A stretch of DNA of 64,000 nt from Patescibacteria group bacterium (GTDB lineage: Bacteria; Patescibacteriota; Gracilibacteria; BD1-5; UBA6164). The translations under genes and the position numbers were made by a program. The stretch covers positions 5,536 through 69,535 of the forward strand of contig JAUCCN010000002.1 of NCBI GenBank assembly GCA_034676185.1, in the 5' to 3' direction. Position 1 is the first letter of the stretch. Each line of letters opens with the position of its first letter. The notes under the pieces are model-generated. The model did no database searches and was not told the origin of the DNA. It was given only the letters and a program-made list of their open reading frames with translations. Positions 102 to 58,749 of this stretch are shown piece after piece.

Positions 102-1481
102 ATGCAAAGCTTACAAGAAATTATTTCACTCATTGAGAGAGCAGTAAAACCTGATGCAAATAATTTGTTGACAGCAGGAGGAATTATTTCAGATAATTTT
201 GACTCAGAAATAGATCATTTAAGAAATTTAGTAAATAATTCAAATCAGTGGTTAAATGAATATACAAAAAATTTAGTTGATCAAACCAGTATTACCACTC
301 TCAAAATTAAATATACTTCTGCTTCAGGATATTTTATAGAAGTTCCACTTTCTCAAAAAGCAAAAATTCCAGAAAATTTTATTCATAAAACTACTTTAGT
401 AAATGCCCTTCGTTTTACTACTCCAGAATTAAGAGAATTTGAAGGAAAAATTATGAATGCTGAAAGTCTTTTGTATGAAAGAGAATATGAGATCTTTAAA
501 AATATTTCTTCTCAAATATTAGAAAAATTTTCTCAAATGAAAGAATATTCTCATAAAATTGCTCAAATTGATTATGTTTCAAACTTATCATATATTGCAT
601 ATGAAAATGATTATGTAAAACCAGAAATTTCTTCTTGATATGATTTAGAAATTCTATGAGCAAGACATCCAATTGTAGAAAAAATAGAAAAGAATTTTAT
701 TTCAAATGATTTATTTTTATCTCAAAAAAAATTTGTAAATATCATCACTTGACCAAATATGTGATGAAAATCTACCTATTTAAGACAAAATGCACTTATT
801 ATTTTAATGAGTCATTTATGAAGTTTTGTGCCAGCAAAAAGTGCAAAAATACCGCTTACCGATAAAATCTTTTCAAGAGTTTGAGCTTCGGATAATCTAT
901 TTTTGTGAGCATCAACATTTATGGTTGAAATGCAAGAGGTAGCAAATATTTTAAACAATTCTACAAAAAATAGTTTTGTTATTATTGATGAAGTTGGAAG
1001 AGGGACTTCAACCTATGATGGTATGAGTCTTGCATGGGCTATTTTAAAAGAAAATCATGATACTATAAAAGCAAAAACTCTCTTTGCTACTCATTATCAT
1101 GAATTAGTTGATGAGTCAAAAAAATTATCTTGAGTTTCAAATTTTTCAGTTGCGGTAAGTGAAAATGAAGAAAATATAGTATTTTTAAGAAAAATTATTC
1201 CTGGAAGTATAAAAAAAAGCTATGGAATTGAAGTTGCAAAACTTGCTTGACTTCCAAGTTCTGTTATTGAAGAAGCGAATAATTTTTTAGCAAATTTTAC
1301 AAAAGAACATACTTTTTCTCAAATGAGTTTATGAAATTTTTGAACTGAAATAAAAGAAAAAATTGTGTACAAAGAGAAAGAAAGTGAAATAGAAAAAGAA
1401 TTAAAAAAAATTGATGTGAATAATTTGACTCCAATTCAAGCATTAAATATATTGGGGGAATTAAAAGGAAAAATGAAATAA
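102..1481 (+). CDS. mutS: DNA mismatch repair protein MutS, C-terminal part only (lever/clamp + ATPase + HTH, 459 aa)
   Basis: With TGA=Gly the track ORFs 102-638 and 921-1133 join. Motifs include LGARHPIVE and Walker A ITGPNMGGKSTYLRQ (Gly codons at 750, 762 and 765 are TGA), plus [21 protein letters not shown] and FATHYHEL. The ATG aligns to about residue 380 of E. coli MutS. An in-frame TAA lies at 75-77 upstream. Confidence 0.85.
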
Positions 1482-1482
1482 A

Positions 1483-1527
1483 AATAAACCAAGCTTTAGT
1501 AAAAATAAGGCATGGTTTATTTTTTTT
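1483..1527 (+). terminator. possible intrinsic terminator after mutS
   Basis: ATAAACCA...TGGTTTAT stem with a large loop, followed by a T8 run. Confidence 0.35.
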
Positions 1528-1553
1528 GACAAAATTTTAAAATATGGTAATAT
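1526..1553 (+). promoter_or_regulatory. sigma70-like promoter of pilin gene 1
   Basis: TTGACA (1526-1531), a 16-nt spacer, then an extended -10 TGgTAATAT. The same architecture lies upstream of the other two pilin genes. Confidence 0.45.
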
Positions 1554-1586
1554 CTACATACTTTATTATTTAATTTTAGGTAAAAA

Positions 1587-4154
1587 ATGGATGACACAAA
1601 TACAAATCATTATAAAAGAAATAAAAAGTTATGAACAAATAAGGCTTTTACTTTAGTAGAGCTGATTATTGTTATTACTATTTTAGCTATTTTAGCAACA
1701 ATAGCTTTTATGAGTTTTCAAGGATATAACAAAAATGCAAGAGACTGAAATAGGGCAACAAGTTTAAAAACTATAGAGACAGGATTAGATTTATATAGCA
1801 TTCAAACTTGAGTGTATCCAGAACCAGAATGAACTATTTCAACTGGGAGTATTAATACCATTGATGGGGAGCAAATATTAGTAAAAAAATGAGTTATCTG
1901 AGATAATACTTCAAGAGTGGTAAGACTTAATACAACTCCAAAAGATCCATTATCACTGACAAATTATGTATATGCGACGACAAATGATAATAGAGAGTAC
2001 CAAATAGGAACTGTCTTGGAAACGTGAGTATCATATTTTCCTTTGATTAAAAATACTTATGCTGATAATTGATATCAAGCAAAAGTTCTGGGGAATTATA
2101 AATGATATATTACTTTTAATAGTTGAGGATTGATTTATATTACAAATATTCCAAGTTTGTTGTGGAGTTGAGATATTTCAGTAAACTTACTAGGAAGTGA
2201 GCCAAAATATATAATAAATAATGGGAAAAATCTTCCATATCATCCAAGTAAATGATATATATCATCAGATGAATTAGGAACTGAAAATCCAATTCAAGTA
2301 ATACAAGAAAAAACTCAAAACACAAATGCAACTCTTATAAGTATTTCAAAAACTGAGTTAGAACAAATCGTCAAAGAATTAAATCAAGATGAAAATTATG
2401 AGCTTCCTCAAGACCTAAAAAATAGTTTAAATGTCGATTCTGCACAAGATATCATCAAAAGTTTTTGAGTAAATAATACACAAGATTTTGAGAGAGTTAT
2501 ATTAGGAAACAAAAATACGACTTCTGGAAAAGTTATTCCAAAAACTCCATGAATATGTTGAGAAGCAGCAACTGCATATGCACATAATATGACAAATTTT
2601 ACAGGATGAGTAAATAATTTTTGTGAGGTAGGAGTTTTAGAAGGAAGTGAACCAATTTTTCCTACTCAATGAAATAATGTTTCATGGATATGTGTTTCTC
2701 CAGATTGAGGAGAAAGTGCTGAATGTAGCGCAAGTAGAGCAAATCCAGATGAAGAAGTAAAAGCATGTAGCGGAAAACCACTCAATTCAAAATATTTTAA
2801 TGGAACAGATGATTATTCAGTTACTGTGCCATTTTGAACTCAAGCTCCAGCTGTGACATATTCAGTAACGCCTACAGAAAATAGTTGTGAATATAGTTGT
2901 ATAAATGGCTATAGTATGAATGCATGAAGATGTAATGATTTGACACCACCAACTTGATGAAGTTTTAACATAAATGAATGAGCTACTAATACAAATGTAA
3001 CAGATATTACTCTGAATATTACTTGTGCTATTGATCAAATTGATGGAAGTGATATTCAGGTAGCTTTTGGAAATACTGCTACTCCAACAAATTGGCAAAA
3101 TTGTACTGGTTCTAAAAGTTTAGTTCATACGATTACTACTTGAGATGGAGTAAAAACAGTATATGTCAGATTTAGAGATAGTGCAGGAAATATGACTACT
3201 GCAATAAGTCAAACTATTACTTATGAAGGAGCATTGTATTATTTTACTACCCATACATTTACAAATTGTTGAATGACAGGAAGGACTTGACCAACTCTTG
3301 CAGCTTGTAGATCATCATATGCAACTAGTTGGGTTGGGAATGATAACTTTTTCAAAGAAGCTCATGCGCAATGAATTCAACTTTGGACAGTTCCGAAAAC
3401 AGGATGGTATAGTATAGATACTTATTGAGCTCAAGGAGGAACATTTCATTTTACTTGATGAAGATGAGTAAGAATGAAATGAGATTTTTATTTAGTAAAA
3501 TGAGAAAAATTAAAAATACTTGTTTGACAAAATGGAGGAAATAGTGGAGATCCTCATTGAAATGAAACTTGATGATGAGGTGGAACATTTGTTACAAATG
3601 CTTCAAACACAGCTCTAATTGTTGCTGGGGGGTGAGGGGGGGCTCCATCTAATACTTATGGAGTTAGTTGTTCTAGAGATATTTCTTCACAATGAGATGC
3701 AACTACGAGTACCTCAGGTAGAACTATTACTTGTAATACTACAGCATCTGGTTGAGCGAGTGGAAACTGATGAGTATCAAATTGATCCCACCAATGATGA
3801 GCTTGATGAGGACTGACTGGAAATTGACAGAACTGAATCGCTCATTGCTCACAACCTCAATGATGAGCAAGTTTTACGAATTGATGAGTTGGAGGACTTT
3901 GAAATTCTTGTTATGTTACTGCTAACTTTTGATGATTTTGATGATGATGATGAGGTGGATTATGATGACCATGAGCTTGATGAGGGTATTCTTGATGAGG
4001 AGTAGCATGATCATGGAGTTCATATTCAACTTATGGTGGTTGAGGAGGATCTTTTAGGGCTGCTACTTATAATTGAAATTCAGTTACGAACCCTCTCGCA
4101 ACTGAGTGAGCAAGATCTGGACACTGACAAGTTATTATTACAGCACTGAATTAA
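1587..4154 (+). CDS. Type IV pilin-like protein (prepilin N-terminus) with Cys-rich modules and a C-terminal ALK/LTK-like glycine-rich domain, 855 aa
   Basis: N-terminus MDDTNTNHYKRNKKLGTNKA/FTLVELIIVITILAILATIAF is a class III signal. The frame was checked codon by codon over long stretches and has many in-frame TGA but no TAA/TAG. The C-terminus reads FTNCGMTGRTGPTLAAC...GIQLWTVPKTGWYSIDTYGAQGG...LKILVGQNGG...LIVAGGGGG...FGGFGGGGGGG...GHGQVIITALN. The stop is TAA at 4152. Confidence 0.85.
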
Positions 4155-25454: not shown

Positions 25455-25529
25455 TGGTTCGGGATATAGGATTCGAACCTATGATGAGAGATTCAGAGTC
25501 TCTAGCCTTACCACTTGGCGAATCCCGAA
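25455..25529 (-). tRNA. tRNA-Gln (anticodon CUG), CCA encoded
   Basis: 75-nt cloverleaf TTCGGGA..GCCAAGTGGTAAGGC..AGAGA-CTCTGAA-TCTCT..TAGGTTCGAATCCTA..TCCCGAACCA. It closely parallels E. coli tRNA-Gln. Confidence 0.85.
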
Positions 25530-27971: not shown

Positions 27972-28197
27972 AGTATAAAAATTAATAAATATTAAGCTTT
28001 CTAGGAATAAAAAAATCTTTTTACCCAAAGATAAAAAGATAGTATTTTGTGTCATTATAAATGTCTTCAAAATTTCTTTTTTATCTCGGTTGGTCTTAGC
28101 TTGTTGCCAACTGTCTTTGATATAGAAAGTAGTTTGATTATATAGAAAAAAAATTAAAGTCAAATTTTTTGCAAAAAAATAATCTGATATAATCAGA

Positions 28198-28473: not shown

Positions 28474-28557
28474 TGGTGCCGGAAGAGAGACTTGAACTCT
28501 CACGCGATTAAGCACTGGCTTCTAAGACCAGCATGTCTACCATTTCATCATCCCGGC
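28474..28557 (-). tRNA. tRNA-Leu (anticodon UAG), long variable arm, CCA encoded
   Basis: GCCGGGA...CTGGT-CTTAGAA-GCCAG...GAGAGTTCAAGTCTCTC-TTCCGGC-ACCA. Confidence 0.85.
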
Positions 28558-28626
28558 ATATACACTTAAATGTGAAACTTTAAATGCTAAAATTTATTTA
28601 ACACTTAATATTTCACATTTTTAGAA

Positions 28627-28711
28627 TGGTGGGCCGAGTAAGATTTGAACTTACGAAGGCATAGCCAGCGGATTTACAGTCCGCCCCATTTGACCGCTCT
28701 GGAATCGACCC
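28627..28711 (-). tRNA. tRNA-Tyr (anticodon GUA), long variable arm, CCA encoded
   Basis: GGGTCGA...GCGGA-CTGTAAA-TCCGC...GTAAGTTCAAATCTTAC-TCGGCCC-ACCA. Confidence 0.85.
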
Positions 28712-28785
28712 TTGTATATAAAAAATAGAAAATAAAAATTTATTACAATTGAAATAGTTTCTATTTTCTGTTTATCTTAAAAAGA

Positions 28786-28861
28786 TGGAGCCAATAATCG
28801 GAATTGAACCGATGACCGTTCGCTTACAAGGCGAATGCTCTACCAACTGAGCTATATTGGC
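28786..28861 (-). tRNA. tRNA-Thr (anticodon UGU), CCA encoded
   Basis: GCCAATATAGCTCAGTTGGTAGAGC-ATTCGC-CTTGTAA-GCGAA...ATCGGTTCAATTCCGAT-TATTGGC-TCCA. Confidence 0.9.
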
Positions 28862-38667: not shown

Positions 38668-40044
38668 ATGTTCAAAAAAATTGTGTGACTTTGATTTTCT
38701 ACCAAAGGAAAAAATGCAAAAGATGTAGAAAAATATATTTCTGAATTAGTTCAATGATGAGCTAATGAATTTTTTACTGGATATAATCCGCCATATTGGT
38801 ATGAAAAATTTGGTTTTGAAGTTTCTCCAAATGGAAGATTTGCTGAACACGAACAAATTACTGATTATGAAAGTTTAAAATTAGTTGTTCAAGAAGTTCA
38901 TAAACACGGTTTTGAACTTTTTATCAATTTAAATGCTTGGTATTATACAGATATTACTTTCCCATACATTCAAAAAATGATTGAGGAATTTATTGAGCTT
39001 TGAATTGATGGAATTATTTGTGGAAATGTAAGTGTTTTAGAGTATTTAAAAGAAATAAATTATAAATGAAAAATAAATATTTCTACTATTATGGCTGTGT
39101 ATAATACAGAAGCAATTAGATTTTTCTTGGAAAATTATACTATCAATAAAGTAATTTTATCTCGTGAAATTACTCTTAGAGAAATAGAAAATATTGTAAC
39201 GACTTTTCCTGAAACAAAATTTGAAGTTTTTGGAGAAGGGGATTTTTGTAGATACAATAATGGTCTTTGTTATGCAGAACATAAATATTGAGCAAGAGAT
39301 ATTTGTACGGTAGTAGTGAATGATCTCATTTTTAAGAAAAAATTTAGAGCTGATTTTAAGAAAGTTATTTTAGATAATTCTTTATCAGATTTAGATAAAA
39401 TTGGTATGTTTGATGATGATTTTGAAGATATTTTTGATAAAATTTCAAATATTTTAACAAAAATTGAGCTTGGATTTGAAGATATGGATTTTTTGAAAAA
39501 AGAATTATTTTCTATTTATAAAATTTCAAAAAAGAGAGTAGATTTATTTTTTGATGCTATCTCGTGAGCAAATAGTGATAAAAATAAAAAAATTATTATT
39601 TATTTTAAATGACTGACTTATATTTTACAAAATTATACTATTTTGGAAGAGCAAGAGAAAATTGAATTACTGAATTTAAGAGAAGAGCTTGAAAAATCTA
39701 TAAAAACAGGAATGCAATATTTTTTCTCAAAGATAAAACAAGTTTGATGAGAACCTAAATTAAAGGCTTTAGAAACAGGATTATTTTATGCAAAATGAGA
39801 TAATTTAAATTTATATAGTTATTTATTTTTCTCAAAATTTCCAAATATTGAAACAGTAAAATTTCCAACTCGTGGAAGAAGTTATAATGAAAAAATTAAA
39901 ACAATTGCAGAAACGGTTGATGCTGGAGAGGTAAATCAAAATTATATTGAAAGATGAGTAAGTATTGAAAGAAGTCATTATGATTTAACCTATCTTTTTG
40001 GAGAAAAATTATGGTTTAGAAATATGTTACAAGATAAGTTTTAA
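38668..40044 (+). CDS. Peptidase U32 family protein with long helical insertion, 458 aa
   Basis: ELFINLNAWYY, GIDGIICGNVSVLEYL, STIMAVYNTEAIRFF, VILSREITLREI and EVFGEGDFCRYNNGLC. Confidence 0.65.
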
Positions 40045-40068
40045 AAGCCGAAAGGCTTTTATTTTTTT
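40044..40068 (+). terminator. rho-independent terminator
   Basis: AAAAGCC-GAAA-GGCTTTT followed by a T-run. Confidence 0.65.
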
Positions 40069-40078
40069 ATGTTAAAAA

Positions 40079-40107
40079 TTTTACTAATTTTAAAAAATAT
40101 GTATACT
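40079..40107 (+). promoter_or_regulatory. candidate promoter of the structured RNA / mod leader
   Basis: TTTTAC, a 17-nt spacer, then TATACT. Confidence 0.35.
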
Positions 40108-40323
40108 TGGCGAGCCAAGATTCTAAGTCCTTTATTCTCAAACTTTCCGTTTTATTAGTAAGAAAGTGCGGTTTTATGCCGTACCCACTTCTTGATATAA
40201 TAAGACGGAGAGGATTGAGAATCTTGGCAGAAACTCAAAATCGGTATAAAGCCGCACTTTTTGTATTTCTGCCACTATATTTTATTTTTTCTTGGCACCT
40301 AGTTTATTACTAAGTGCTTTTTA
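40106..40323 (+). ncRNA. Unclassified structured RNA (independent sRNA or cis-regulatory leader of the Type III mod gene)
   Basis: It is locally GC-enriched in an AT-rich genome. Nested helices are 40115-40124/40218-40227 (10 bp), 40147-40155/40200-40208 (9 bp) and 40160-40168/40186-40193. Competing helices are 40163-40171/40252-40260 (9 bp) and 40226-40233/40266-40273 (8 bp). A terminal hairpin at 40295-40317 is followed by T5. Confidence 0.5.
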
Positions 40324-40325
40324 TT

Positions 40326-42176
40326 ATGAATAATTTATCTTTAATTGAGTTACTTCCAAAGGTAGTAGCAGATTGAAAAAAAGAAGTTGAGAAGATTATG
40401 GAGAATATCTCCGAGTGAAACAAAATCAAACTTCAAACAAATGAAATAGTAGTTCCCGCAAAGGACTCTATGAAAACTAATTTTAAATTTTGAGAAACAA
40501 ATCTTGAAATTGAAAACTGGCAAAATCGTCTCGTATACGGAGACAATATTCTTGTTATGTCTGCACTTCTTGCTGGAGATTTTGCAAATAATCTTGAATC
40601 TCTCAGATGAAAAATAGATCTTATTTATATAGATCCTCCTTTTGATAGCAAAGCTGACTATAGAACAAAAATCACTCTACCAGGAACAGAACTTGAGAAA
40701 AAACCAACTGTCTTAGAACAATTTGCTTATAGTGATACTTGGAAAGACGGAACTATAAGTTATCTGAAGATGATGTATCCAAGACTTGCTCTTATGAGAG
40801 AATTGTTAAGTGAAACTTGAAGTATTTATGTGCATATTGATTGGCATGTAGGGCATTATGTTAAAATATTACTTGATGAAATTTTTGGGAAACATTCTTT
40901 CAGAAATGAAATAATTTGGTGATATCAATGGTGATGAGTTGGGAAAAGGGAATTTGCAAAGAAACATGATACAATTTATTGGTATTCTAAATCAGATAAG
41001 GAAAGTGATAAATGGATTTTTAATGAAAAAGAAATGAGAGAACCATATATTACTAAAGATGCTAGATGGCATAATAATCAGGATGGAAAACTTTTTAGAG
41101 ATTTATGGGATGATATTCCTGTAATAAATACTATGTCTAAGGAGAGAATAAATTATTGAACTCAAAAACCAGAAAAACTTTTAGAAAGAATTATAAAAGC
41201 AAGTTGTCCCGAATGATGAATTGTTTGTGATTTTTTTGGTGGAAGTGGAACTACTGCAAGTGTAGCAGAAAAATTATGAAGAAAATGGATTAGTTCAGAT
41301 ATTGGAAAACCTTCTGTCATGATTCAAAGAAAAAGATTTATAGATAATGAAGCAAAAACATTTTTGTATCAATCTATTTGAGACTATCAAAAAGAATATC
41401 TTGCACAAACTCATGGAACAAGTTTTAGAATTTGAGATTTAGCAAAGTTAATTTTACATATGTATTGAGCTATTCCGGATGAAACAAGAACATATGCAAA
41501 TGTTTGACATATTCAAGGAACAAAAACATTAGTTATAGCTGATAGTCCAAATAAGTTAACTAATTTAAATACTTTAAAAAAAGCATTATATTTAAAAGAC
41601 ACTTTCCAATGATGATATTGGGAAAAAGTAGTAGTTTTAGGATGGAATTTTAGCTCAACTATTTCATTGGAACTCAGAGAATTAAACTCAGAAGAAATAG
41701 AAGTGCTTGTGATACCGCCAGATTTACTTGATAAACTGAAAACCAAACAAGGGTATAAAAAACTCGTGGATAGTTGAGCTGTGAAATTTAGCTCACTGCA
41801 ATATCTTGATATTTTTACTCCTGAAAGAATTATATCTTGAGAACAAGAACAAATAAATATAAAACTAAAAAATTATATTATTCTTACTCCTGATGCTCTA
41901 CCACTTGATGAAAAAAATAAAGAACTTTTAAAACCAATTATTGCTAATAGTCCTTTGGATTTAATAGAATATTGGAGTGTAGATACTGATTATGACTGAA
42001 AAATATTTAGAAGTGTTTGGCAAGATTATAGGCAAAATACTGAAAATGATAATGATGATTTAAGAGTTATTAAAGAAGCAAAAATTATAGTTCCCAAAAA
42101 GGCTTGAAAAAGAAAAATTTGTGTAAAAGCAGTTGATGTATTTGGATGGGAAAGTGAAGTGTTAATGGAAGTTTAG
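40326..42176 (+). CDS. mod: Type III restriction-modification system methyltransferase (Mod, beta-class N6-adenine/N4-cytosine MTase), 616 aa
   Basis: Motif [11 protein letters not shown] precedes motif [12 protein letters not shown] (beta-class order), with [11 protein letters not shown]. An uncharacterised C-terminal extension of about 300 aa follows. The stop is TAG. Confidence 0.8.
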
Positions 42177-42194
42177 TTTTATAATTATTATTTT

Positions 42195-42413
42195 ATGAAT
42201 AATAAAGAATTATTAAAAGATAGTTTAGAAAATAAATTATTTCTTAAAAATAAAATTTATCAGGAGCAATATGATAGATTAAAAATATTATATTTCATTT
42301 CTTGAATACCGTTACTACCATTAAAAGAATTTAATAAAGGTAAGAAAAATAATGTTATAAATTGAGGATATAGGGGAAAAGTTATTGTCTACAATGAAAA
42401 TTGATGAAAGTAA
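42195..42413 (+). CDS. Hypothetical small protein between mod and res, 72 aa
   Basis: ATG to TAA with five in-frame TGA: MNNKELLKDSLENKLFLKNKIYQEQYDRLKILYFISGIPLLPLKEF... Confidence 0.4.
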
Positions 42414-42443: not shown

Positions 42444-45353
42444 ATGAATCCAAATTTACAACTCTCTCAAGATATCACAAACATCGTAAATGATAGCTTT
42501 ATATCTTGAGAAATGCTTGAAAAAGTAAGTCCTGTTACTCGTGAACTCCTACATTTTTGGTTTGATGAAAACTGGACTATAAACAGAAATATAAATTTTC
42601 ATGAAGGACAAAAACAGGCAATACTTAATACTATTTATTTAACTGAAATATTAAAAATTAAAAATGTAGCAGATATTTATAAATCAGTAAGTCCAGATCT
42701 CATTTTAGAAAAATCAATTTGATTAAAATATATAGAATCTGATAGATTTGATTATAAAAGACTTTGTTATAAAATGGCAACTGGGACAGGTAAAACTTGG
42801 GTTTTATCAGCACTTCTTATTTGGCAATATCTTAACTATAAATATCAAAAAGAAAATGATATTTTTGACAGTGAAGTAAAATTTTCTTCTAATTTTCTTG
42901 TAGTTGCTCCATGACTTATCGTTTATGAAAGACTTTTAGATGCTTTTTCTTGAAAAATAGTTTGAGAAAAAAGAGATTTTTCTACTTCAGATTTTAAAAA
43001 TTTTCAAGATTTATTTATTCCAGAAGATTATAGAGAAAGTGTTTTTTCATTTGTTCAGTCTAGCATAGTTACCAAAGAAGAAATTGGAAGAAAAATTATT
43101 TGAGATGGGCAAATAATTATTACAAATTGGCATATTTTTCTAGAAAATGAAGAAATAACAGAAGAAGATTTTGAAAATATTGATATTTATAAAGAAACTG
43201 AAAAAGTTATAAAATCCCTTCTTCCAGCAACTCCTTGAATAAGTGCTTGAAATAGTCTTGAAACTCTTGATAATAAATACTCTTCTAAACCAGAACTAGA
43301 ATATTTAAAAAGATTAAAAAATCTTGTAGTTTTCAATGATGAAGCTCATCATTTATGAGAATCAAACTCAAAAACTGATGATGAAGAAGAAAAAAAATGG
43401 CAACAAGCTATGATAGATATAGCAAAAAATAAAAAAGAGCACTTTTTACAACTCGATTTTACAGCAACTCCATATATTCAAAAATGAAAAGAAAAACAAT
43501 ATTTTCCTCATATAATTGTTGATTTTGATATAGTAAAAGCGATGAAACAATGACTTATAAAATCCCTTGTTTTAGATAAAAGAAAAGAAATTGCTACTTT
43601 ATCAAATGATGAGCTTGAATTTAAAGCAGTCAGGGAAAATGGAAAAGTAATTTCGCTTTCAAAATGACAAGAAATTATGCTTCAAGCATGACTCAAAAAG
43701 CTAAAAATATTAAATGATAGTTTTACAAAAGATTGAAAAAATAAAACTCCAAAAATGCTCGTTGTTTGTGAAGATACAGAAGTAGTTCCATTTGTAGAAA
43801 AATTCTTAGTAGACTTATGATATAACGAAGATGAATTTGTTTCAATACACTCAAATAAAAAATGAGATATGTATGATGAAGATAAAAAGAAAGTTTTTTG
43901 ACTTGATATATGAGAAAATCCAAAAGTTGTTATTTCAGTTTTGATGCTGAGAGAATGATTTGATGTAAATAACATTTGTGTAATAGTTCCACTAAGAAGT
44001 AGTACTTCTTGAGTTTTGCTTGAACAAACGATTTGAAGATGATTAAGACTTATGTGGAGATGAGACCAGGCTTTAGATGAAGCAAAAGCAGAAAATAGAA
44101 AAAGACTTTTTCAAGAGAAAAAATCACCAAATAATTATTATGATATACTTTCGGTTGTTGAACACCCAGCTTTTGAAGAATTTTATAGAGATTTAATGAA
44201 CTCTTGAGAAATAGCATTTTGAATTGATGAAAATGAGCTTGATGAAAAAGATAGAGAGAAAATTACCTGAGAAATAGAAACTATTTCTCTAAAATCTGAT
44301 TATAAAGATTTTGATATAGCTTTTCCTTTGATTATGTCAGATATTGAAGAAATTTTAAAAGCTCCAGAATATAGTATAAATGCACTTTCAAGTTATCCTT
44401 GAGATTATAAAGAGCTCAAAAAAATGGTTGGAACCAAAGAAAAATTTATACAAGAAGCAGTTTTATCTGGAACGAGATTTTGAGATTATGATGTAGATAT
44501 CGGTATTTTAACAGCAAATAGTTATAATGAATATTTAGCAAGATTAACAAGAAAAGTAGCTGATGCAGTTTGATGAGGAGAATTTGATATAAAGAAAAAT
44601 TCTAAAAATTATAATTTAATGCAAATAAATCTTCCTCAAATTACAAGACTTAATCAAGAATATATTGAAAATAAATTATTTTCTCAAAAATTTGAACCTT
44701 TAGAAGATAATAATTGGAAAATTCTTATGATAGATGATATAGCAAAATTTATTATAAAAGAACTCATACAAATTATTGAAAATGCAAAACAAGTGGAAAC
44801 TATTTGAGAAATACAAGTAATAAACAAATATTTAAGCGAAGTTGACAGCATAAAATTAAGAGAAAATTTTTCTATACCAGTTTCAAAGTCTATTTTTGAA
44901 AAGTTGCCTTTTCCTTCAAATAAATGATGACTTGAAGAAGCTTTTATTCGTTTTGTTGATAATGAAAGCTTAGTAGAAAGTTTTTGTAAAATATTTGAAT
45001 TTAAACATTTGTTTTTTAGGATGAGATATATAAGAGATGACGGAATACCGTCATATTATTATCCTGATTTTATTTTAAAAACTGATGAAAAGATATATTT
45101 AGTTGAAACAAAAGCAACTCGTGATATGAATAATCAAAATGTGAGAAGAAAAGAAAATGCTACACTTTCATATCTCAGAAAAATAAATGATTTACCACCA
45201 AATTTTAGACAAGAGAGAATTTGGGAATATGTGCTTTTAAGTGAAGATAAATTTTATATTTATACAAAAAATAATGCAAATATAAAAGAAATTTTGGAAA
45301 GTTCAAAAATATTGGATTTAAAGGGAAATTGAAATCAAGTAGCATTTTTTTAA
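42444..45353 (+). CDS. res: Type III restriction endonuclease Res subunit (SF2 helicase + PD-(D/E)xK nuclease), 969 aa
   Basis: Walker A MATGTGKTW, DEAH box VFNDEAHHL, FTATP and VLMLREGFDVNNI. The C-terminal nuclease motif is YYPDFILK...IYLVETKAT. Many track fragments are in the same frame. Confidence 0.85.
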
Positions 45354-45430: not shown

Positions 45431-46432
45431 ATGCACCAAATAGATTTTCTCACGACTATTATTGATAACTTTTGAGATGCAGGATTTGCTTTTCATCTTG
45501 CTATTTCTTTGCTCTATAATGATAACAATTTACAGATTCGTTTTTTTTGTGATGATAAAGAATTATTTTTACAACTGAAAGGAAATCTTGAAATTCAAAA
45601 TCTTACTTATTATGATTTAAAAGATTTTGAAAAAGAGAAACCATCAGAAACCATATATAATTTTTTTGATAGAAAAATAAATTTTGAATATCTACATAGT
45701 TTTTCGTACAATATAAAACTTATAAATTTTTCCTATTTTCTTATGCACGATGGAGTACAAAACCTGCATAATACTTCATATCAATCAAAAAATGTATCTG
45801 TAACACATTATATTCCATCTCTTTTACCAGAGTGAGGTTGAGTAATCATATCTCCACATATAGAATCATTTAAAAATGAAATAAAAGAAAAATGAATTCT
45901 CTCAGCAAGAAAAGTTTTATTTCCTTCTTTAACAGAAACAGATTATCAAAAAACTTGGATTTCTATTTTTTGTTATAAAGAAACTTTTGAAGAAATAAAA
46001 GAAACCATTTTACAAGATACAGAAAATTTTTATCTTCTTTTTCAATATCAACTGCAAGCTAAAAATGTAGTAAATATGCCATTTGTAGATATCATACAAT
46101 ATGAAAAAATATTATGTATTTGTGATAAAAATCTTGTGAGAGGAGAGAATAGTTTTGTTTGAGCATTATGAACTTGAAAACCATTTTTATGGGATATTTA
46201 TAAAGAACATAATAAAGCACATCAATATAAAATACAAGATTTTTGTCAATATTTGCAAACTATTGGAGATTTTGTAAATTATTTTGAGATATTTACTCTA
46301 TTTAATGAAGAAAAGCAAAGAAAATATTTTCAAAAATTTTGCTTAGAAAAATATATGTGAGACTTTGAAAAAATACCATATTTACTCTCTTCAAATGCAA
46401 ATCTTTTAAAAAATATAAAAAAATACCTCTAA
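45431..46432 (+). CDS. earP: EarP-like EF-P arginine rhamnosyltransferase (DUF2331), 333 aa
   Basis: N-terminus MHQIDFLTTIIDNFGDAGFAFHLAISL and C-terminal NLVRGENSFVGALGTGKPFLWDIYKEHNKAH. Both match EarP hallmark regions as recalled from memory. Confidence 0.6.
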
Positions 46433-47482: not shown

Positions 47483-48565
47483 ATGCAATGAACTATTAGA
47501 CCAGATTATATTTTGAGAGATCAACTTTTACAAGTTATGATTGATAACGAAGGAAGTGATATGTATATTACTGTTGGCACGTATCCCGCAATAAAAATTT
47601 GATGAGATATTGTAAAAATAGATGAGTGACTTACTATACTCACTTGGAAAGATACTATGGAATTTACTCAATCAATTGTAACTGAAAAACAACATGAATA
47701 TTTAGTAAAATCGAAAAATCTTGATTTTGCATTTTCTTTCTCTGGAAGAAGATTTAGAGTAAATGTTTCGTTTCAGATGTCAAATTATATGGTAGTTATT
47801 AGACTGCTTGGAAATAAAATACCAACAGTTGATGATTTATGACTTCCAGCAATTTACAAAGAAATTACGAAACTTTGACAATGATTGATCCTTGTAACAG
47901 GACCAACAGGAAGTGGAAAATCAACGACTCTAGCAGCTATGATAAATTTTATTAATCAAAATTATAATAAACATATTATCACGATTGAAGATCCGGTTGA
48001 GTATCTTCATCCGCATGGAAAATCTATTGTAGAACAAAAAGAAATTGGAAAGGATATTCCGGATTATAAAACAGCACTTGCTTGAGCTATGAGACAAAAT
48101 CCACAAGTTATTTTATTTTGAGAAATGAGAACCACTGAAGAAATTGAAATGGCTTTAACACTTGCTGAAACGGGACATTTAGTGTTTTCTACTCTCCATA
48201 CTCGTTCTGCATATCAAACGATTTCAAGAATTATTGATAGTTTTGAATCTGGTCAACAAAATCAAATCAGACTTCAACTTGCTGATAGTTTGGTAGGAGT
48301 ATTTTCTCAAAGACTCCTGAAAGCGAGTGATGGAAGTGGAGTAAAATTAGTAAAAGAAATTCTTACTCGTACTTCGGCAGTGGTAAATTTAATTAGAGAA
48401 AATGATCTCCATCAGATTCCTTCAGTGATGCAAATGTGATCAAGAGATGGAATGCAAATTTTAGAAAAAGATATTATTGAACTTATCAATTTATGATATA
48501 TTTCAGAAGAAGAATGACTCAAATATGCAAATAATCCTAAAATTGTAAAAGAATGAATGAATTAA
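47483..48565 (+). CDS. pilT: Type IV pilus retraction ATPase PilT, 360 aa
   Basis: GSDMYITVG, Walker [25 protein letters not shown]-like [25 protein letters not shown] and AVVNLIRE. Confidence 0.9.
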
Positions 48566-48594
48566 AAAAATCCTGAAATTTTCAGGATTTTTTT
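48564..48594. terminator. bidirectional terminator
   Basis: AAAAAAATCCTGAAATTTTCAGGATTTTTTT. Confidence 0.65.
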
Positions 48595-48596
48595 AA

Positions 48597-49130
48597 TTAT
48601 TCTTTTGGAATTACTGCTTCAATAGCTGCAAAGGTTGCTTCTTTTCAAAGGGGAAGTATGATAGTGAGACTATCTCAAATTTCTCATTTAAAGTGAGTTA
48701 CCGCAGCTGTAAGTAGATTATATGTTTTTCCTTCTGCTACGACTTGGTATTTTCCATTTTCTTTTACAAGAAGTCCAACTTTTGTTTCTCTTTCAATAGG
48801 TTGAATTTGTTTGTAGAGCATTTTTCCGCTTCCATCAATCGTAAGTTTGAGTTTATCTCATTGTACGAGCTTTGATTTTGAAGCATAATTTGATGGAACT
48901 GGATATCTGTGTCCATCTGCTCAGAGCATTTCTTCTCAAGTAAATACTCCTTCAACGATTTTATTATCATCAGTTCTATATTCTGTCAGTCAAGAAGTAT
49001 CAAGTGAGAGTTCACTAGAGTCAATATTATTTTCTTTTAAAACTTCGCTTAAAAGTTTTTTGGCATTTCTGATTGATTTTTCAGCTGATTCTATGAAATC
49101 TTTTATAGCAATAATTCTTTTTTGTTCCAT
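48597..49130 (-). CDS. Conserved hypothetical protein, 177 aa
   Basis: The frame with TGA=Gly gives ...GVFTGEEMLGADGHRYPVPSNYASKSKLVQGDKLKL... The competing standard-code track ORF 48764-48970 is in another frame and is rejected. Confidence 0.55.
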
Positions 49131-50760: not shown

Positions 50761-51960
50761 ATGTATAAAATTGGAATAGATGAAGCAGGGAGATGACCTT
50801 GGATTTGACCAGTAGTAGCTTGTAGTTTAACTTTTAATAAAAATAATCTTCCAGATAAAAATTTTCTTTGAGAATTAGGAGATTCTAAAAAACTTACTGA
50901 GAAAAAAAGAGAAGAATTATTTGAAAAGCTAATAAAACTTTCTACTTGAGAAGAACCACAAGTATATTTTTGAGTGTGAGTAGTGGATAATTATGTCATT
51001 GATGAGATAAATATTAAACAAGCAAATAAAGAAGCTATGAGGAGAAGTTTAGTAGAGCTTTTAAGAAAAATAGATAAAAAAAAGATTGAGGGAGTTTTAG
51101 TAGATGGAAATGACAATTATATATTTGAAGAGTTAGAAAAGAAACCGATTTATATTATTGAAGGAGATGCGAAAGTAGTTGAAATTGGAGCAGCTTCTAT
51201 TATAGCGAAAGTTTTTAGAGATAAACTTATGTCTACCTATGCAGTATTATATCCAAATTTATGATTGGAAAAGCACAAATGATATGGAACAAAAAAACAT
51301 AGAGAGTATTTGAACGAACCTTCAAAAATTACTGGAATTCATAGAATTTCCTATAAACCAGTAAAAAAAATATCAGAGCAAAAACCAAAACTACTTTTGC
51401 ATATATGTTGCTGACCAGATGCAAGTATTCCTATAGTTGATTTAAAAAAGGATTATGAAGTGATTTGTTTTTGGTATGACCCAAATATTCAACCAAAAAA
51501 AGAATATAATAAAAGATTAAAAGCTTTAAAAAAAGTTTGTGAGATAGAATGAGTTACTTGGATAGAATGAGAGTATGATGTGGTGAATTTTTTTCAGGAA
51601 ATAAAATGACTTGAACATACTCCTGAAAGATGAGAAAAATGTGTGAAATGTTATGATATGCGACTCAAAAGAACCGCAATTGAAGCACAAAAACTTTGAA
51701 TTACCTATTGGACTTCAACTCTTCTCACTTCTCCGCATAAAGATATAGAAAAAATGTTTGAAATAGGAGAGAAATATTCACAAGATTTTTTATCAGAGTG
51801 AACCATAAAAAAGAAATTAGAGTTTTTAAAAATTGCATTTCGAAAAAATAATTGATTTTTAAGAAGTGTAGAGTATTGTAAAACCCATGATATTTATAGA
51901 CAAAATTATTGTGGATGTATTTATTCAGATACTTTTCAGTGAGAAAATTTTAGTTGATAA
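50761..51960 (+). CDS. rnhB: Fusion protein: ribonuclease HII (N-terminal ~200 aa) + epoxyqueuosine reductase QueH/DUF208 (C-terminal ~190 aa), 399 aa
   Basis: The N-terminal part has IGIDEAGRGPWIGPVVA, DSKKL and KGYGTKKH...ITGIHRISYKP. A single frame then continues into LLLHICCGPDA...FWYDPNIQP..EY..R...ERGEKCVKCYDMRL...TSPHK...YRQNYCGCIYS. Confidence 0.75.
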
Positions 51961-58166: not shown

Positions 58167-58709
58167 ATGAAAAAATATTTTATAATTTTCCTTTTATTTT
58201 TATTTTCTTGTTCTTCAGGGGAAGAATGAGTGGTAACTTGACTGGTTCTTCATGAAGGCTCTGGGTTTGATATGAGTATTCCATCTAATTGGGAAACTAT
58301 CACTCAAGAATCAAATATGCTTCCAAATCCTAAAAATTCTCAAATAGCATTAGCAGTTTCTTCACAAGATTTAAAATATGGTTTTTCCAATAATCTTTTA
58401 ATTCTTTCACAAGATTTAGATAAAACTATTTCTTCTACTGATTTTTCTATTTGAAATTATGTAGGTTCAACAAAAGAATATCTTGAATTTGTAAAATTAG
58501 ATTCTAAAAATATAGATTTTATAAATGGGGAAAAATCAAATATTTATGTGTTTGAAGCAAAATATAATCCCCAAACTCCAAGATTTAAATATATTCAAAC
58601 AGGAGTTGTTTGTGAAAAGAAAGGATATCTTATTACTGTTGCACTTTCAACGGATGTAAAAGATACTTCAAAATATGAAGAAGTTATAAAAACATTTCAA
58701 TGTAAATAA
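58167..58709 (+). CDS. Hypothetical lipoprotein, 180 aa
   Basis: Lipobox MKKYFIIFLLFLFS-C-SS. Track ORF 58272-58454 is in the same frame. Confidence 0.6.
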
Positions 58710-58734
58710 AAAACTCCTATAAAGGAGATTTTTA
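58708..58734 (+). terminator. rho-independent terminator
   Basis: AAAAACTCCTATAAAGGAGATTTTT. Confidence 0.6.
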
Positions 58735-58749
58735 TTTACATTGAAACAT

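Follow-up and report, generated by a model that had tools for sequence, protein, structure and literature searches.

The stretch of DNA analysed here, called the window throughout, comprises 64,000 nucleotides of a Patescibacteria group bacterium of the Gracilibacteria (assembly GCA_034676185.1, contig JAUCCN010000002.1) and contains, between a gene for a U32 peptidase and the methyltransferase gene mod of a Type III restriction-modification (R-M) system, a block predicted to encode a highly structured RNA. On the sequence evidence, this block is a conserved and covarying structured element of the plus strand that has its own promoter signal and is physically joined, on mobile cassettes in Gracilibacteria, to the beginnings of R-M methyltransferase genes that belong to three families. 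We favour, with a probability of roughly 0.55, the reading that structured leader RNAs of this kind, ~195-255 nt in length, form a previously undescribed family that serves as the 5' module of autonomous R-M cassettes in Gracilibacteria, and that they are new cis-acting leader or attenuator RNAs operating by programmed strand exchange.

In three close relatives (L001-L003; loci from other sequences carry L numbers here) the stop codon of the U32 gene lies 2 nt from the start of EarP, which occupies 45431-46432 of the window, and the segment 40045-45430 is absent; the segment is therefore an insertion, 5.4 kb in length. This island carries, in order, a terminator hairpin, a promoter, the RNA block, mod (40326-42176, +; 616 aa with TGA read as Gly, PF01555), a small open reading frame (ORF) of 72 aa (42195-42413, +) and res (42444-45353, +), which encodes a Type III restriction subunit of 969 aa (PF04851). 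The RNA block belongs to the R-M cassette and not to U32. An earlier note on this DNA had assigned the hairpin at the left edge of the island (AAAAGCCGAAAGGCUUUU followed by a U-run, 40042-40061, +, located by terminator scan) to the U32 gene; the hairpin is present, but as an upstream insulating terminator of the inserted island rather than as part of the ancestral U32 gene. In L007, too, the U32|EarP site is filled. No integrase or target duplication was noticed at the island, and no recombinase is encoded within it. Presence in the core genome outside mobile islands, as would mark a housekeeping RNA, was not found, since L001-L003 are without the whole segment.

The host has several features that bear on how the locus is read. 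ORFs of the window stay open only with TGA as a sense codon, and the RNase HII motif DEAGRGP..GP and other glycine motifs need TGA = Gly (e.g. 50761-51960), as in genetic code 25. The best relatives of the U32 peptidase upstream of the RNA block (60-92% identity) are annotated as Candidatus Gracilibacteria. G+C content is 25.8% over the 64 kb, and a Shine-Dalgarno-like motif was found within 25 nt upstream of none of 50 window genes, the start regions being A/U-rich.

The structured block and its signals

The block is enriched in G+C, as had been claimed from inspection of the sequence, with a fraction of 0.36-0.37 at 40100-40299 and 0.18-0.26 in the flanks. Its plus strand folds with -74.6 kcal/mol (z = -7.9), a value equalled by none of 200 shuffles, and its minus strand gives z = -5.65. 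When both strands of the window were tiled in 212-nt segments (5,104 folds), the top three tiles all overlapped the block and ranked ahead of the tRNA cluster; the best (block 40114-40322, +) reached -72.5 kcal/mol against a mean of -30.7 and a standard deviation of 7.9.

A leader RNA of ~209 nt is predicted to run from G40114 to the end of a U-tract at 40322 on the plus strand, and its parts, all on that strand, are defined by folds and by an architecture common to ten homologues. The 5' strand, segment A (40114-40130), pairs with segment M (40210-40228) to form helix P1, of which the helix 40115-40124/40218-40227 proposed earlier is a portion. Inside P1 lie P2, formed by 40146-40157 and 40198-40209 and including the proposed helix 40147-40155/40200-40208, and P3, whose flank is the proposed helix 40160-40168/40186-40193. 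The purine-rich 5' strand of P3, its loop and the first bases of its 3' strand constitute segment X (40160-40181), and the 3' strand itself is segment X' (40178-40194), an imperfect local partner of X. A further hairpin, P4 (GGCAGAAA / UUUCUGCC, 40226-40273), contains the proposed alternative helix 40226-40233/40266-40273 and carries in its loop segment X'' (40241-40263), a contiguous distal partner of X (z = -8.9) that ends in an invariant C-UUUUU. The second proposed alternative, 40163-40171/40252-40260, proved to be the core of a contiguous 21-bp helix, 40161-40181/40242-40262; in the window X pairs with local X' at -12.5 kcal/mol versus -32.3 kcal/mol over the 21 contiguous bp with X''. 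The X:X' helix is imperfect, with a bulge and/or G.U pairs, in every homologue. Segment M is a shared strand. It pairs either with A or, in most homologues, with A2, a second copy of A that follows P4; in window-type leaders AUUCUCAA (40134-40141) stands in the place of A2, whose pairing is weak in this type, and is the alternative partner of M (UUGAGAAU, 40215-40222) in the minimum free energy (MFE) folds of the window, L007 and L038. Downstream of P4 the segment preT (UCUUGGC, 40290-40296) pairs with the first seven nucleotides of A (GCCAAGA) to form a closing helix, and its last two bases are shared with the base of the final stem.

That stem, T (40295-40322), is a terminator-type hairpin of 9 bp with a conserved C.A mismatch and -8.5 kcal/mol; its hairpin at 40295-40317 is followed, as previously described, by U5 (40318-40322), AUU and the ATG of mod at 40326, so that T ends 3 nt before the start codon of what is predicted to be the first gene controlled. 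T is present in all ten homologues as a hairpin with a 9-bp stem (-8.5 to -8.8 kcal/mol) followed by U5-8, as expected of an intrinsic terminator, and the U-tract ends 0-3 nt before an ATG in every copy. The sequence of the stem is identical in eight of the ten. One pair shows a compensatory change (C-G to G-C), in the window and L025. L038 and L040 have unrelated but perfect stems and retain the hairpin, U-run and ATG. Since none of the 50 genes checked has a Shine-Dalgarno motif, it is unusual for this genome to have a hairpin as close as 8 nt to the AUG. Between T and the ATG, neither room nor signal for another operon promoter was seen in those few bases, and none is consistently placed.

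A sigma-70-type promoter precedes the leader at 40080-40107 (+). The promoter noted earlier is thus present, although weak, and reads TTTACT-16-TATACT rather than TTTTAC-17-TATACT. A stronger form, TTGCAA-16-TAnAnT, stands at a fixed distance (-33 from the G of GCCAA) in seven of nine homologues scanned, and the conserved position of the promoter places the predicted start at G40114, the first base of segment A. The 5' hairpin previously proposed at 40106-40119 exists in the sequence, but it lies mostly upstream of this probable start and is absent from other homologues. Upstream insulation recurs, L007, L011 and L012 also having a terminator hairpin just upstream of the leader promoter. The layout of the cassette, as read from sequence, appears to be upstream terminator, own promoter, leader, methyltransferase and nuclease.

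Searches for known RNA classes returned no family that matches the block. Rfam 15 at gathering thresholds found in the whole window only four tRNAs and the L10 leader; in E-value mode over 39900-40500 the best match was a plant miRNA hairpin (31.8 bits against a threshold of 63) and all others had E > 0.4, and ARAGORN found no tmRNA. A metabolite- or ion-sensing riboswitch, one of the options raised by the earlier note, would agree with the P1-like helix that closes a three-way junction, the terminator after it and the complementary loops of the two arms, an arrangement that loosely recalls purine riboswitches. Among the homologues, however, there is no conserved unpaired pocket: the invariant columns are GCCAA/UUGGC, the C-UUUUU run and T, and junctions and loops are AU-rich and variable. 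No association with metabolic or transport genes was seen, the genes downstream encoding R-M enzymes (PF01555 Mod, PF13651 EcoRI_methylase, PF04851 ResIII and GmrSD_N with HNH), and no relevant Rfam match appeared even at E <= 10. A riboswitch is therefore a most improbable account of the block.

Elsewhere in the window, the L10 ribosomal-protein leader (RF00557, 47.5 bits) and the four tRNA genes (Leu, Tyr, Thr, Gln) lie on the minus strand at 28001-28138, 28474-28861 and 25455-25528. Two long palindromes between convergent genes, at 48560-48598 (19 nt, 100% complementary) and 58695-58746 (24 nt, 96% complementary), are probably bidirectional terminators and are the source of the next most stable folds in the window. 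In the relative L002, a diversity-generating-retroelement-like pair (bAvd and reverse transcriptase) is found at 1262-3236, a few kb upstream of the U32 locus.

Homologues and covariation

Relatives of Mod at 75-78% identity carry an alignable upstream block of 280-340 nt. They are found at the same U32|EarP site (L007/L037) and at other sites (L005/L014, L008/L035/L036 and L038/L039). A protein 96% identical to Mod (P0121) has no contig on record, and the block is absent from L009, where Mod is 65% identical and the organism reads the standard code. Further copies were sought with a pattern built from the T (3') hairpin in GTDB genomes, metagenomes and viral sequences. The GTDB scan gave four true matches, L011, L012, L013 and L014 (in Ca. 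Altimarinus, a Gracilibacteria metagenome-assembled genome (MAG) and a MAG labelled Peribacteria), and the metagenome scan two among 15, L025 and the partial L029. The other 13 metagenome matches and all five viral ones (L015-L024, L026-L028, L030-L034) were rejected as ordinary gene-end terminators on phage or Firmicute-like contigs of ~26-43% GC; the stem GGCACCUA../..UAAGUGC with a U-run that occurs there is unrelated to the leader, and it was retrieved only because the pattern itself specified that stem. An additional leader, L040, was reached through the gene downstream of L025; it has no BLAST similarity to the others and the same architecture.

The ten distinct leaders assembled in this way fall into seven groups that cannot be aligned with one another, and stand before three methylase families, two distant Type III mod families and one EcoRI-like. 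All ten copies lie directly 5' of an R-M methyltransferase start codon, at several genomic sites and in one orientation, and no second copy of the block was found in the window or the other loci searched. The gene downstream of L011, L012, L013 and L029 is an EcoRI-type adenine methylase (PF13651, E = 8.5e-130) instead of mod; in L011 and L013 it is followed by a second gene of ~360 aa, which in L011 is a GmrSD_N + HNH nuclease. L040 precedes a second Type III system, with a Mod 33% identical to that of the window over the catalytic core and a Res of 751 aa. Between mod and res, the 72-aa ORF of the window matches the C-terminal part of a homologous 97-aa ORF in L007, and unrelated small ORFs take this position elsewhere (107 aa in L005/L008, 188 aa in L037, 125 aa in L038); neither of the two scanned (L005, L007) has a Pfam match. 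The tie between RNA and R-M system is thus stronger than the earlier note could show, as the element moves with the R-M island and precedes three R-M methyltransferase families. One MAG (Ca. Altimarinus BE2012_25_8) carries two leaders before different R-M types, L011 (4676-4873) and L014 (3728-3945). Conversely, the leaders of L005 (3783-4000) and L012 (6523-6742) are 84% identical over most of their length and precede a Type III mod and an EcoRI-like methylase, respectively, with the switch at the ATG. Because these leaders are similar and the methylase families differ from the ATG on, the leader acts as an exchangeable 5' module.

Sequence similarity between groups extends over the last ~40 nt only, or is lacking, and the architecture is kept through compensatory changes. 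Plain MAFFT with RNAalifold recovered the end of P1 and T only, the variable stems being unalignable by sequence, and covariation was counted in ungapped blocks anchored at the RNA start, at the GGC ending M and at the G starting A2; MAFFT kept these blocks ungapped. In P1, 90% of cells were paired versus 67% after column shuffling (reached by 0 of 500 shuffles; covariation score 0.63 vs 0.18), slid registers gave 34-53%, and 13 of the 16 pairs had changed on both sides. The combination of M:A2 and P4 was 78% paired versus 63% (0/500; 0.46 vs 0.21). For X:X'' the figures were 89% versus 65% (0/500; 0.73 vs 0.25), with slid registers at 46-57%. Alignment-free duplex energies agree, cognate pairs being more stable than those with other groups for X:X'' (-24.0 vs -9.1 kcal/mol), X:X' (-11.9 vs -7.2) and A:M (-16.3 vs -8.0). 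Uninterrupted X:X'' runs of 15-21 bp have -23 to -32 kcal/mol and z = -6.7 to -9.7 against shuffles, and X'' covers the P3 loop too: where L005 and L012 differ by G-to-A in that loop, X'' differs by the compensating C-to-U. The match of M with A2 is 12/12 in L005, L012, L013 and L040 and 11/12 in L008. P2 has been wholly replaced in sequence in L007 with its pairing kept. Pairing of preT (..UUGGC) extends over the first 7-8 nt of the RNA, and in L025 and L012 extended, lineage-specific and covarying complementarity was noted by eye. Two strands upstream of the terminator therefore have two partners each, M with A or A2 and X with X' or X'', as is generic to attenuators. The central proposal of the earlier note, a structured RNA with mutually exclusive helices that ends in a terminator-type hairpin abutting mod, is supported by this conservation and covariation among relatives; neither outcome by which that note would have been refuted, a lack of conservation or a conserved protein at 40107-40313, was observed.

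The same substitutions speak to whether the block encodes protein. A 68-codon frame, 40107-40313, is open in the window and could be a small protein gene, but its frame, start and length are not conserved among the homologues and the substitutions are compensatory for pairing rather than synonymous, leaving this explanation next to no chance of being right. They also bear on a DNA-level role, in which X and X'' would be a 21-bp inverted repeat used for site-specific inversion (phase variation), or a recombination or cassette-junction site, with RNA structure as a by-product. X and X'' are indeed long, near-perfect inverted repeats ~60 bp apart, and the cassettes are mosaic, with similar leaders before different methylase families in L005 and L012 and the junction at the ATG. 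Against this, all ten copies have the same orientation, the island has no recombinase, the promoter stands outside the repeats, X/X'' varies where a recombinase site would normally keep its sequence, and P1, P2, P4, M:A2 and T also covary, which an inversion site would not explain. The X:X'' runs moreover contain 0-3 G.U pairs per homologue that pair only in plus-strand RNA, and G.U pairs also occur in P1; the plus-strand RNA is the selected molecule because such pairs would be C.A mismatches on the minus strand. A DNA-level element is accordingly very unlikely.

Predicted folding order and regulatory readings

Structures were predicted thermodynamically, without pseudoknots, for four transcript lengths, and all ten homologues give essentially one pathway. 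When transcription has reached the end of M or of X'', the long P1-P2-P3 hairpin is predicted, and X'' remains unpaired beside it. After A2 has been made, M is predicted to exchange A for A2 in seven of the nine homologues first tested and in L040, which releases the 5' end. At full length the MFE fold of every homologue consists of the closing helix A:preT, an arm H1 (P2 and P3) and an arm H2 (M:A2 and P4, with X'' in the loop), which meet in a three-way junction, followed by T. The long interrupted hairpin described in the earlier note has all three of its helices; it is probably a folding intermediate, however, and not the predicted full-length structure, which is closed by the 5' end.

On the preferred reading, the RNA would be transcribed as the 5' leader of the operon and act in cis through an ordered series of exchanges. 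The 5' strand A would first pair with M to give the long hairpin P1-P2-P3 tipped by the imperfect X:X' helix; X'' would then be transcribed and match X, including the P3 loop, over 15-21 contiguous bp; A2 would capture M in most homologues and free the 5' end; and the 5' end would pair with preT, closing the molecule against the base of T, with the U-tract ending 0-3 nt before a start codon that has no Shine-Dalgarno sequence. Most transcripts would stop at T and yield a compact small RNA (sRNA) with paired ends. In mRNA made by read-through, T would lie 8 nt from the AUG in a genome whose translation starts depend on AU-rich regions free of structure. The share of polymerases and ribosomes reaching the methyltransferase-nuclease operon would thus be set by the fold present when T is transcribed, and that choice may be biased by folding kinetics, by accumulated leader RNA acting via X/X'', by RNase III or by a host factor. 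The outcome would be a gene-independent, RNA-only means of limiting or timing a self-toxic cassette in a host with few regulators.

Several points weigh against this scheme. The start site, termination at T and all of the folds are predictions. Closing helix and T contest just the two basal G-C pairs of T, and a fold forced to contain all of T is 0-0.7 kcal/mol less stable; the models thus give no clear-cut antiterminator logic, and T may be constitutive. X:X'', the strongest helix, is pseudoknotted with respect to P1, P2, P4 and M:A2, and including it in a nested fold costs 9-29 kcal/mol relative to the MFE. This leaves three ways in which X:X'' can form: as a tertiary or pseudoknot helix seeded in a loop, as a transient invasion of P3, or as a contact between molecules. 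Promoter and ORF scans found no sensor for the choice of fold. There is no ORF conserved in position, frame or length among nine homologues, L011 lacking any ATG-initiated ORF of at least 12 codons, and a leader peptide upstream of the first strand has no room because the RNA starts at strand A. No minus-strand promoter is positionally conserved, the sole recurrent match (8 of 12) lying in the coding start of mod and being absent from the EcoRI-like cassettes. Finally, the covariation counts come from a small comparison set, ten sequences in seven groups, with block anchors chosen by the analyst and one fitted register per sequence in the X:X'' alignment. Some homologues contain AAGGAGG in X, and Shine-Dalgarno mimicry by X was considered; it is irrelevant where none of 50 window genes uses a Shine-Dalgarno sequence.

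Some of the same features would suit a constitutive expression module that insulates the cassette, protects the 5' end of the mRNA and damps expression through a leaky terminator, the alternative helices being folding chaperones. Upstream terminators belong to the cassette, the 5' end is paired in the final fold, the closing helix barely alters T energetically and no sensor is apparent. Yet two partners each for M and X have been kept by selection in seven independent lineages, which goes beyond the needs of a stabiliser or insulator, and a simple 5' hairpin with a weak terminator would suffice for the purpose. A purely constitutive role is for these reasons quite unlikely.

The terminated product of ~210 nt might instead be a stand-alone functional sRNA acting in trans, either on its own nascent leaders via X/X'' or on a host or cassette protein, with operon expression resulting from read-through. 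The closed three-way junction of the full-length MFE, with its 5' end stacked on T, has a shape typical of stable sRNAs, and a T stem invariant in sequence in eight of ten homologues would suit a protein-binding site. X and X'' are highly variable but always matched, and the two copies in one MAG do not cross-pair: the cognate X/X'' pairs of L011 and L014 have -29.7 and -28.3 kcal/mol, the cross pairs -16.8 and -10.4. On the other hand, the RNA must be at least a 5' leader as well, given that in every copy the U-tract ends at a fixed 0-3 nt from the start codon and that no other operon promoter is evident; a search of mod and res mRNA for targets of X, X' and X'' found none above background; X'' in cis would always outcompete a copy in trans; and the occurrence of two unrelated nuclease types speaks against a specific antitoxin interaction between RNA and nuclease. 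An sRNA of this kind is unlikely, if a serious candidate. A more specific variant would be an RNA-only autoregulator with a private address, in which the accumulated terminated leader, or a form processed by RNase III, acts via X/X'' on nascent leaders of the same cassette only. We regard this as improbable. If true, read-through into the methylase and nuclease genes would depend on the time since entry or on copy number, and the leader would be the counterpart in RNA of C-protein control, with a specificity among the R-M cassettes of one cell that resembles incompatibility groups.

The leader as predicted offers an unusually clear natural case of multi-step strand exchange, with two strands that have two conserved partners each and a long helix seeded in a hairpin loop, and it would be attractive as a model for co-transcriptional folding. 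The motif also marks autonomous R-M cassettes in Gracilibacteria genomes. These hosts belong to the candidate phyla radiation: their genomes are tiny, their regulators few and their genetic code altered, and translation is not led by Shine-Dalgarno sequences.

Comparison with known systems

Purine riboswitches adopt a 'tuning fork' three-way junction with kissing loops and arms of ~7 bp. The leader resembles them in its closing helix with the 5' end, its two side-by-side arms with complementary apical regions and its downstream terminator; in contrast, its arms are 20-30 bp long, the loop-loop complementarity of 15-21 bp invades the stem, and it has neither conserved junction nucleotides nor a metabolic context. 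By analogy, attenuators of the pT181 type and mRNAs of the hok type are the nearest mechanistic analogues, a matter of resemblance and not of membership, as the defining features of each were tested for and are absent.

Countertranscript-driven transcriptional attenuators of plasmid rep genes (pT181, pIP501, pAMbeta1) were reportedly described by Novick et al. in 1989. Like those of the pT181 type, the leader described here is helix-rich and ~200 nt long, with an intrinsic terminator immediately 5' of the controlled start codon, an upstream strand able to pair with the 5' flank of the terminator, and variable complementary segments that determine specificity; both belong to a mobile element that must control its own dosage. 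Unlike them, it has no conserved antisense promoter or countertranscript, the 'antisense' X'' being part of the same transcript, the enzymes controlled are those of an R-M system rather than replication initiators, and the overlap with the terminator is just 2 bp.

The hok/sok-type toxin mRNAs of type I toxin-antitoxin systems undergo programmed refolding (PMC3874152). They share with the leader mutually exclusive helices that form one after another, a metastable structure at the 5' end that later gives way, a long-range helix by which the 5' end closes the molecule, and association with an addictive, self-toxic module. In hok mRNA, fold-back pairing and metastable hairpins are combined with refolding triggered by 3' trimming. 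The leader differs in that no refolding trigger is evident, there is no antisense RNA gene and no toxin peptide, and the closing helix forms within the leader rather than between the 5' and 3' ends of an mRNA.

R-M systems are self-toxic mobile modules whose expression must be limited, and timed on entering a new cell. Known controls comprise C-proteins, methylase autorepression, antisense transcripts such as the antisense RNAs of EcoRI and Eco29kI (PMC3874152, PMC3141266), and phase variation. A review of R-M regulation among these sources never mentions riboswitches, and full-text literature searches brought up no structured leader or riboswitch-like RNA described for R-M systems or for Gracilibacteria. 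The presumed purpose of the leader is the same as that of these controls, namely to limit or time a methylase-nuclease pair on a mobile cassette. It differs from them in being a structured leader on the sense strand, common to three methylase families, with no C-box or C-protein identified and no reverse promoter; shared in this way by unrelated methylase families, such a leader would represent a new, portable and protein-independent solution.

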